From: Patescibacteria group bacterium
GTDB taxonomy: Bacteria > Patescibacteriota > JACPGU01
Assembly (NCBI GenBank): GCA_041675145.1
Contig: JBAYUK010000001.1
Location: 11,822 to 75,821, forward strand
Length of the DNA: 64,000 bases
Direction of reading: 5' to 3'
Notes under the pieces: generated by a model
Database searches by the model: none
The model's input: only the letters and a program-made list of their open reading frames with translations
What the model was told of the DNA's origin: nothing
Program-made: the position numbers and the translations under genes
Shown here: piece by piece, positions 22,261 through 22,700 of the stretch
Layout of the letters: the number at the start of each line of letters is the position of its first letter
How positions within the stretch are numbered: the stretch's first letter is position 1

Positions 22261-22700
22261 TTGCTTTTTAGGCTATGTTTTGGTTATTATTTACTTATGC
22301 AAACACAAAACCCACAAGAAGAATTTAGTAAATGGAATAACTTAAAGATCCCAATAGCTGAGAGGAAGAAGTTTCCGCAGTTTAGCGAGCGCGAGATATG
22401 GTGGTGCAGTATTGGAAAAAACGTCGGTCACGAATGTGATGGTAAGAATGAGCTGTTCGAACGACCCGTGCTAGTATTGAAGAAGTTTAACCGAGATACA
22501 TTTCTTGGAATGCCGATAACCTAAGCCAAAGGATAGTAGATTCCACTTTACCTATGTTTTCCATAATCAAACAAGGTCTGTTATGTTAGGGCAAGTTCGC
22601 TTATTCAGTGCACAGCGGTTGTCTCGCCGACTTGGCCGCATGCAGGCAAGTGATTTCAGATCCTTACAGGAGAAAACTAAGGTACTCTTCGGCTTTTAGA
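22261..22700 (+). pseudogene. mazF: Frameshifted MazF/PemK-family endoribonuclease toxin gene
   Basis: Frame 1 (22261..22524) 'SEREIWWCSIGKNVGHECDGKNELFERPVLVLKKFNRDTFLGMPIT' matches the MazF N-terminal half. A +1 frame from about 22523 to 22700, 'KPKDSRFHFTYVF...LGQVRLFSAQRLSRRLG...LQEKTKVLFGF', aligns position-by-position with the E. coli MazF C-terminal 61 aa. A single-nt indel near 22522 would join them. Confidence 0.55.

Follow-up and report, generated by a model that had tools for sequence, protein, structure and literature searches.

The 64-kb stretch of DNA analysed here (referred to as the window) contains a pemK/mazF-like toxin gene that is broken by a frameshift, and on the opposite strand, next to the toxin stop codon, it carries two tandem copies of a small-RNA gene that also adjoins related toxin genes in other genomes. 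The locus is probably an RNA-antitoxin module like CjpT/CjrA of Campylobacter jejuni, in which the toxin was recently inactivated, or is mis-assembled, and the RNA genes have persisted. As such, it is a degenerate new example of a barely studied kind of system that combines a PemK toxin with a convergent RNA antitoxin. The two RNA copies are apparently intact, so that judging from the DNA it is the toxin that is broken, and the putative antitoxin is still there. The locus contains the following features.

22297..22524, plus strand: pemK/mazF-like toxin gene, N-terminal part (frame 1, 75 codons, premature TAA at 22522-22524)
22520..22524, plus strand: frameshift site ACC T AAG, bracketed by the frame-2 stop at 22517-22519 and the frame-1 stop at 22522-22524
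22523..22699, plus strand: pemK/mazF-like toxin gene, C-terminal part (frame 2, 58 codons and TAG at 22697-22699)
22699..22755, minus strand: small-RNA gene copy 1, about 55 nt (covariance model 32.3 bits, E = 1.3e-8)
22760..22787, minus strand: promoter of copy 1 (TTGCTA, 16 nt, TG-n-TATAAT, 10/12 matches)
22810..22866, minus strand: small-RNA gene copy 2 (covariance model 23.4 bits, E = 4.4e-5)
22871..22898, minus strand: promoter of copy 2 (TTGCCA, 16 nt, TATAGT, 10/12 matches)
22872-24149, minus strand: murA (stop codon 22872-22874)

Reading the region 22261-22703 in frame 1 gives an ORF that is open from the ATG at 22297 to the ACC at 22519-22521, where the TAA follows, and that encodes 75 amino acids (MQTQ...GMPIT). 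The first-pass annotation had begun this frame at TTG 22261, which we correct to ATG 22297. Frame 2 has a stop at 22517-22519, is open from 22520 to the TAG, and encodes 58 amino acids from 22523 (KPKDSRF...VLFGF). When 22297-22521 in frame 1 and 22523-22699 in frame 2 are joined, a PemK/MazF protein of 133 amino acids results. This joined protein matches Pfam PemK_toxin (PF02452) with 38.9 bits at a cut-off of 23.1 and covers model positions 3-107 of 109, whereas the separate halves score 17.3 and 16.5 bits, both under the cut-off. A search with the joined protein returned 518 database proteins; the intact ones among the matches listed are 126-178 amino acids long, at most 52% identical, and align straight across the junction. 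That the two frames represent one MazF, as had been proposed from the reading frames, is thus borne out, with the caveat that the reading frame of this PF02452 member is interrupted by the TAA at 22522. The nearest protein among 5.8 billion is 52% identical, and the only near-identical database entry is an NCBI annotation of the 75-aa N-terminal fragment, whose sequence is the same as ours ('hypothetical protein WC045_00185 [Patescibacteria group bacterium]').

Both halves have kept the residues that characterise this toxin subfamily, which we found at 494 loci in GTDB species representatives and whose members are annotated in databases as 'type II toxin-antitoxin system PemK/MazF family toxin'. 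F10, W13 and K17 of the subfamily-specific N-terminal helix are found in the N-terminal part, together with R56 and T75 of the catalytic loop, and the C-terminal part has retained the conserved R101, R107 and F120. The family profile matches B. subtilis MazF/EndoA in the PDB (E = 2.8e-5), with the R and T placed on catalytic residues: the Arg is R56 of ERPVLV, which is invariant, and the Thr is T75 of P-I-T, which is matched with its counterpart in B. subtilis EndoA. We take the catalytic Arg to be the equivalent of E. coli R29 and B. subtilis R25, and the loop Thr that of T52 and T48, respectively. An AlphaFold model of the repaired protein has a pLDDT of 91.6, and all top 50 PDB matches of this model in Foldseek belong to the MazF family (MazF, EndoA/YdcE, MoxT; E ~1e-7 to 1e-5, TM 0.6-0.8). 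The repaired toxin is thus predicted to have the MazF/CcdB SH3-like barrel fold, to which residues 6-22 would add the extra N-terminal helix typical of the subfamily. NCBIfam and PADLOC yielded no meaningful match for the toxin.

The toxin locus is chromosomal and lies between tgt and murA. It had been noted that tgt ends 20 nt upstream; it is in fact the 5' end of the divergent tgt gene that lies there, at a distance of 21-57 nt. Upstream of the toxin ATG (22241-22299) a Shine-Dalgarno sequence is absent, and the strict promoter scan revealed no plus-strand promoter upstream of the toxin. The best -10-like hexamer before the gene, TATTAT at 22286-22291, is located 6 nt short of the ATG at 22297. 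As there is no Shine-Dalgarno sequence and the hexamer is only 6 nt from the start codon, the toxin mRNA may be leaderless, in contrast to the C. jejuni homolog discussed below, which has a 5' UTR of 26 nt.

Next, we focused on the lesion itself. The two stops that bracket the frameshift site confine the frame change to 22520-22524. An indel of 1 nt near 22522 had been proposed in the first-pass annotation; its position agrees with ours, but its size does not. In an alignment of 120 sequences, the residue between the Thr of the PIT/PLT loop and the Lys that follows it is present in 119/119 homologs, and only the window sequence has a gap there. This junction column contains T in 58 homologs, S in 51, R in 4, K in 2 and G in 2, and the family motif at this position is P-L-T-[TS]-K. 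As all 119 homologs have the extra residue, the lesion amounts to a net change of -2 nt, which combines one codon with the change of frame. The simplest history would be a net deletion of 2 nt within the codon after the catalytic-loop Thr, from ACC-TCN-AAG to ACC-T-AAG.

Neither toxin half has lost any family-invariant residue, and the C-terminal frame contains no stop over 59 codons, which suggests that the frameshift is either recent or an assembly artefact. In the latter case, the gene would be intact in the organism, the 2-nt gap would be an error in the assembly or consensus of this metagenome-assembled genome (MAG), and the locus would be a live toxin/RNA-antitoxin module. We regard this as a realistic possibility, albeit a doubtful one. 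It agrees with the lack of any other decay in the gene and with the related genes, as 87/87 of these in 85 fetched loci were recovered as single uninterrupted alignments; moreover, a MAG consensus may hold indels at strain-variable sites. However, the site is neither a homopolymer nor a simple repeat (GATAACCTAAGCC), and the loss of 2 nt is atypical, the usual error being a 1-nt change in run length. For the same reasons, the earlier suggestion of a sequencing error in a homopolymer does not hold. The NCBI annotation of the contig also calls just the 75-aa fragment, and the collections that we searched yielded no independent assembly of the strain: exact and gapped patterns of the frameshift site had 0 matches in metagenome contigs, and a protein-guided metagenome scan for the same strain found only relatives of at most 47% identity. 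The frameshift in the window gene is probably biological. A pseudogene is by itself ordinary.

A programmed +1 ribosomal frameshift at ACC-UAA-G could in principle yield a full-length toxin. The zero-frame stop coincides with the shift site and the two frames overlap by only 5 nt, as in prfB. However, no relative shares the frameshift, as the 87 related genes are each encoded in one frame, and the product would be without the catalytic-loop residue that is common to all 119 homologs. As the relatives are uninterrupted and this conserved residue is missing, and as the upstream sequence offers no Shine-Dalgarno-like stimulator and a slip from ACC to CCU would be poor, we consider programmed frameshifting extremely improbable, in agreement with the first-pass annotation, which had already called ribosomal frameshifting unlikely.

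One homolog outside the window is also interrupted. In a MAG labelled Peribacteria (L081, 2495-2692), an in-frame TGA follows after 65 codons and similarity continues to ~2857. Either the gene is a second disrupted copy, or UGA is a sense codon in its genome (code 25 lineages).

To identify a protein antitoxin, we clustered the 1140 ORFs of at least 30 amino acids that lie at most 600 nt from the gene in 83 related loci. No conserved neighbouring protein family emerged from these 83 loci, the largest cluster being an ABC ATPase found at 7 of them. The PemK genes of the first homolog loci have only unrelated housekeeping or mobile genes around them, and no small ORFs were called beside P0002, P0003 and P0004. 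In the window, no MazE/PemI-like ORF is present near the toxin, as had been noted before, and no co-oriented gene of this type adjoins it. As there are 0 conserved protein neighbours in 83 related loci from many phyla, the absence of MazE appears to be ancestral for the subfamily rather than the result of a loss. This bears on the earlier suggestion that the gene could be an orphan toxin in decay, a mazF of type II deprived of its mazE/pemI partner. Such a history would fit the absence of a MazE/PemI-like ORF within 600 nt and the type II PemK/MazF label that the homologs carry in databases. However, none of the 83 related loci has a conserved protein neighbour, and the window contains two copies of a conserved RNA partner. 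We thus consider decay after antitoxin loss very unlikely. A locus on a Nitratiruptor plasmid (L091) contains an ORF of 62 amino acids at 1973-2161, directly after the RNA element and on the toxin strand (MQDKRMTQKTIRVEDDLWDKFKKIAKYKD...), whose product looks like a ribbon-helix-helix protein. This ORF is not conserved in the other loci and may belong to the plasmid replication/partition genes.

The stretch at and beyond the toxin stop codon, by contrast, is alike in nearly all loci. In ~83% of the 83 related loci, it contains a small-RNA gene of ~55 nt with two hairpins, which is encoded on the opposite strand and ends at the toxin stop codon. In the orientation opposite to pemK, the element consists of TTGACA, a spacer of 16-18 nt, TATAAT, ~6 nt and the sequence ACAAAU, followed by a 4-bp hairpin with a 4-nt loop (hairpin A), the linker YCCGA, a GC-rich hairpin and GUUUU. 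The sigma-70 promoter lies at a fixed distance, with the end of the -10 box 12 nt before hairpin A, and its hexamers have a mean of 9.9 of 12 consensus matches (at least 9/12 in 53/59 loci). In a structure-blind MAFFT alignment, hairpin A is paired in 93.6% of cases and 4/4 of its pairs covary with double-sided changes (e.g., UA 32, GC 17, CG 3). The covariation score is 0.484 compared to 0.222 in shuffled alignments, with 0/500 shuffles as high, and the pairing collapses when the partner columns are slid. The strand is indicated by an excess of G-U over A-C in the paired cells (92 versus 11) and by the loops, which have the UUCG or GNRA tetraloop form only when read on the minus strand. The unpaired ACAAAU and YCCGA are conserved as well, between toxins that are only 40-50% identical.

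A covariance model built from the MAFFT alignment had 76 matches at E <= 0.01 in 462,722 nt, all of them opposite to the pemK strand. A match was located within -60 to +200 nt of the toxin stop codon in 67/83 sources, and in two further sources with a read-through ORF, the match coincided with the end of the homology region; a confident match was missing in 14 loci. The sole match elsewhere was found ~65 nt upstream of the pemK gene of L054 (2384-2435). The element adjoins pemK homologs irrespective of which gene is next to them and how this gene is oriented. Rfam 15 scans of the window element, of 20 and a further 12 related loci, and of the C. jejuni RNA CJpv3 (see below) revealed no family, including pemK RF02913, at E <= 5-10 or the gathering threshold. 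Nor did our literature search find a paper that describes a conserved small RNA for this PemK subfamily. The flanks of two loci contain unrelated Rfam matches, namely a LOOT RNA in L073 (5086-5205; 75 bits, above gathering) and a sub-threshold T-box leader in L022 (3687-3843).

In the window, the element is present twice, as a direct repeat of 91 nt (22697-22787 and 22808-22898, 79% identical) that corresponds to two tandem RNA genes. Copy 1 consists of the 5' tail AUUAU, hairpin A at 22737-22748, the linker CCCGA and the terminator hairpin at 22706-22731, from which GUUUGUCU leads to the toxin stop codon. The RNA 3' end meets this codon, so that any overlap with the toxin transcript would be limited to the stop codon or the 3' UTR and would depend on how far this 3' UTR extends. 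Copy 2 has hairpin A at 22848-22859 and the terminator hairpin at 22817-22842. Both copies fold into a 5' tail, a 4-bp hairpin, a linker and an 11-bp terminator, with -25.5 kcal/mol (z = -5.3) for copy 1 and ~-25.5 kcal/mol (z = -5.0) for copy 2, in which one stem position forms a G-U pair in the minus-strand RNA but would be mismatched in a plus-strand transcript. An independent consensus scan found the promoters and terminators of both copies on the minus strand, and the distance from promoter to hairpin A in copy 1 is the same as in 59 related loci. The window copies are at the low end of the family scores (32 and 23 bits). Their 5' tails, AUUAU and AUCUU, differ from the family consensus ACAAAU, and the linker of copy 2 has diverged.

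The promoter of copy 2 lies over the last codons and the stop of murA on the minus strand, and the terminator of copy 2 is the first one downstream of murA, so that read-through from murA would enter both small-RNA units. As murA transcripts would be terminated by copy 2, which starts at the stop codon of this gene, the repeats could be viewed as duplicated terminators or intergenic repeats of murA that are unrelated to the toxin. This explanation is hardly credible, however, as the element follows pemK homologs whatever the neighbouring gene is, has a conserved promoter of its own, and is absent elsewhere in the 64-kb window and in ~400 kb of flanks. A dispersed repeat element is ruled out for the same region, as the window holds only these two copies.

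The family of RNA genes shows variation in copy number, size and context. Tandem RNA pairs are also found in L007, L041, L048 and L050, where the toxin is intact. Several genomes contain two or more toxin-RNA modules, sometimes in tandem ~1.1 kb apart, as in L049 (1729-1780 and 2833-2884), L071 (genes ending at 2269 and 2884) and L054, and modules also occur on contig pairs from the same MAG (L012/L020, L015/L055, L048/L072). This multi-copy, patchy distribution is typical of selfish toxin-antitoxin modules. Two larger variants of the RNA exist, one with an insertion of ~51 nt in the first hairpin and one with three hairpins, in which the terminator stem is partly formed from the last codons of the toxin. 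Loci with larger variants are L086 (1354-1447), L087 (690-780) and L089 (1890-1985), all on the minus strand, and further L034, L066, L078, L071 (2894-2938), L083, L064 and L070. Both variants are weakly detected by the covariance model, which recovered some of these loci. In about one third of the parsed relatives, the annotated PemK ORF extends 30-46 nt into the complement of the small RNA (e.g., L004 3387-3437, L005 670-720, L014, L016, L031, L036, L047, L053, L059, L060 and L082), which results in C-terminal tails such as ...DPLRDPRVPKGNL. These tails are either translated or an annotation run-on, and the longer 'homologs' of 139-150 amino acids are explained by the ORF running into the complement of the small-RNA gene.

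Searching plasmids with tblastn, we found the same PemK subfamily in Campylobacterota. The homolog on the Nitratiruptor plasmid is 44% identical to the window toxin, and the same two-hairpin RNA layout is found past its stop codon. In C. jejuni 81-176, the pVir plasmid encodes a homolog with 34% identity (CJJ81176_pVir0047, 30634-31038; E = 2e-21) that shares the F-x-x-W-N-x-x-K motif of the N-terminal helix. From the -10 box alone, we predicted a minus-strand transcription start site (TSS) at 31119, downstream of TGATATAAT, which matches the published TSS. The small RNA CJpv3 is encoded there, on the minus strand from 31119 to 31043 (77 nt) between pVir0047 and pVir0048, and has been detected by Northern blot (Dugar 2013, PMC3656092, Table S12). 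In dRNA-seq, TSS 31119 is classified as antisense to pVir0047 and has a height of 16164 versus 28 for the toxin TSS at 30608 (PMC3656092, Table S5). CJpv3 ends 5 nt beyond the toxin stop and folds as a tail of 6 nt followed by three hairpins; our covariance model, which was built from RNAs of Patescibacteria and Rickettsiales, does not recognise it. Passages in PMC10470494 and PMC7826846 that cite Shen et al. 2016 describe CjrA of 81-176 pVir as an antisense type I antitoxin, and the former also mentions repression of the toxin and relief of its toxicity (PMC10470494). In TADB, the cjrA RNA has a length of 78 nt (PMC7826846, supplementary file 4). As this size fits CJpv3 (77 nt) and not the other two pVir small RNAs, both of which are longer than 100 nt, and as the position agrees, CjrA is probably CJpv3, and CjpT is probably pVir0047.

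Together with the window, these loci suggest how the module may work. The toxin would be an endoribonuclease with a MazF fold and an extra N-terminal helix. Its partner would be the convergent RNA of ~55 nt, which has a strong sigma-70 promoter of its own and consists of a 4-bp hairpin and an intrinsic terminator. Its U-tract abuts the toxin stop codon. The RNA would be able to pair with the toxin transcript at its 3' end or in its 3' UTR, and by analogy with CjrA, TxpA/RatA and BsrG/SR4, we infer that it acts as the antitoxin and keeps toxin expression low via antisense pairing. Here, the toxin would have been disabled by the net loss of 2 nt from its catalytic loop, recently since no other decay is apparent, and both tandem RNA genes seem to have retained their promoters, stems and terminators.

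This type I-like reading is the best supported one, and its main mechanistic rival is a type III-like action, in which the RNA would bind to the toxin protein itself and block it, as a pseudo-substrate or inhibitor. A purely cis-antisense mechanism does not need the cross-phylum conservation of the unpaired ACAAAU and YCCGA, and here RNA sequence and structure are conserved between toxins that have diverged to 40-50% identity. The ACA-containing tail resembles the recognition sites of MazF, which are ACA in E. coli and UACAU in B. subtilis, and tandem RNA copies are present in the window as well as in the four loci mentioned above. The extra N-terminal helix of the subfamily, with its invariant W13, may also be seen in this light. 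On the other hand, a convergent RNA with its own promoter and usually a single copy has the layout of a cis-antisense type I system and does not resemble the upstream arrays of ToxI. The ACAAAU and CCGAG motifs are absent from the window copies and from CJpv3, and the conservation of the tail may reflect constraints on the transcription start. Moreover, PMC10470494 describes the RNA of C. jejuni as an antisense antitoxin of type I. We thus consider direct binding rather unlikely. The more specific idea, that the conserved RNA binds and inhibits the MazF-fold protein as a pseudo-substrate via its ACA tail and represents a fourth, MazF-based lineage of protein-binding RNA antitoxins, seems slightly less probable still. 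If true, this lineage of protein-binding RNAs would span Patescibacteria, Rickettsiales and Campylobacterota.

Genes of this subfamily are labelled 'type II toxin' and look like orphans, yet they are accompanied by a structured RNA gene of a widespread family that is absent from Rfam and invisible to protein-based finders of toxin-antitoxin and defence systems. Many loci from candidate phyla and Rickettsiales are now tied to what is apparently the single experimentally studied case, in Campylobacter, which suggests that MazF-fold toxins under RNA control are widespread. A clean covariance model is now usable for their annotation. The window locus would also illustrate an order of decay that is expected and tolerated, in which the toxin is lost and the antitoxin is kept.

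Several known systems resemble the window locus in part. The Rfam motif RF02913 was reportedly described by Weinberg et al. in 2017 and named for its association with pemK genes. It is a different RNA, as its covariance model has no match in the window element, the related loci or CJpv3. Like MazEF and PemIK (Kid/Kis), the window locus encodes a toxin with the PF02452 domain, the same predicted fold and conserved catalytic Arg and Thr positions. Unlike these systems, it has no MazE/PemI upstream, as is also true of its 83 relatives, and it has the extra N-terminal helix and an RNA partner on the opposite strand.

Among type III systems (ToxIN, CptIN, TenpIN), an RNA partners an endoribonuclease toxin with a fold related to Kid/MazF. 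This RNA is an array of short direct repeats that lies upstream of the toxin on the same strand and is processed by it. The window locus is similar in that an RNA is the partner of a toxin with an endoribonuclease fold and that tandem RNA copies occur at some loci. It differs in that the RNA is located downstream on the opposite strand, is usually single-copy in this family and has a promoter and a terminator for each unit, and in that the toxin belongs to PF02452 and not to ToxN/AbiQ.

The type I systems TxpA/RatA and BsrG/SR4 of B. subtilis have a convergent antitoxin RNA of 180-220 nt that is complementary to the 3' end of the toxin mRNA and is transcribed from a strong promoter, and their toxins are small hydrophobic membrane peptides. 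The window locus shares the convergent RNA gene and the strong antitoxin promoter, whereas its RNA measures ~55 nt and its toxin is predicted to be a soluble RNase-fold protein of ~130 amino acids. Type I systems with enzyme-like toxins are SymE/SymR and RalR/RalA, in which the RNAs overlap the 5' region or the coding region. By the classical definition, a type I toxin is a small hydrophobic membrane peptide, from which the 133-aa MazF-fold protein, predicted to be soluble, departs; the small RNA, which is encoded on the opposite strand in tight linkage to the toxin and has a promoter and a terminator of its own, agrees with the type I layout.

The closest resemblance is to CjpT/CjrA, which Shen et al. 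are said to have described in 2016 as a type I toxin-antitoxin system of C. jejuni pVir. CJpv3, the probable CjrA, has 77 nt and three AT-rich hairpins, whereas the window RNA, present in two copies, has ~55 nt and two hairpins; the window locus lies on the chromosome and its toxin is frameshifted, and CjpT/CjrA is located on a plasmid. Both loci encode a toxin of the same PemK subfamily (34% identity) with a shared N-terminal helix, neither has a protein antitoxin, and in both a convergent small RNA with its own -10 box begins with a short single-stranded 5' tail that is followed by hairpins and a terminator.
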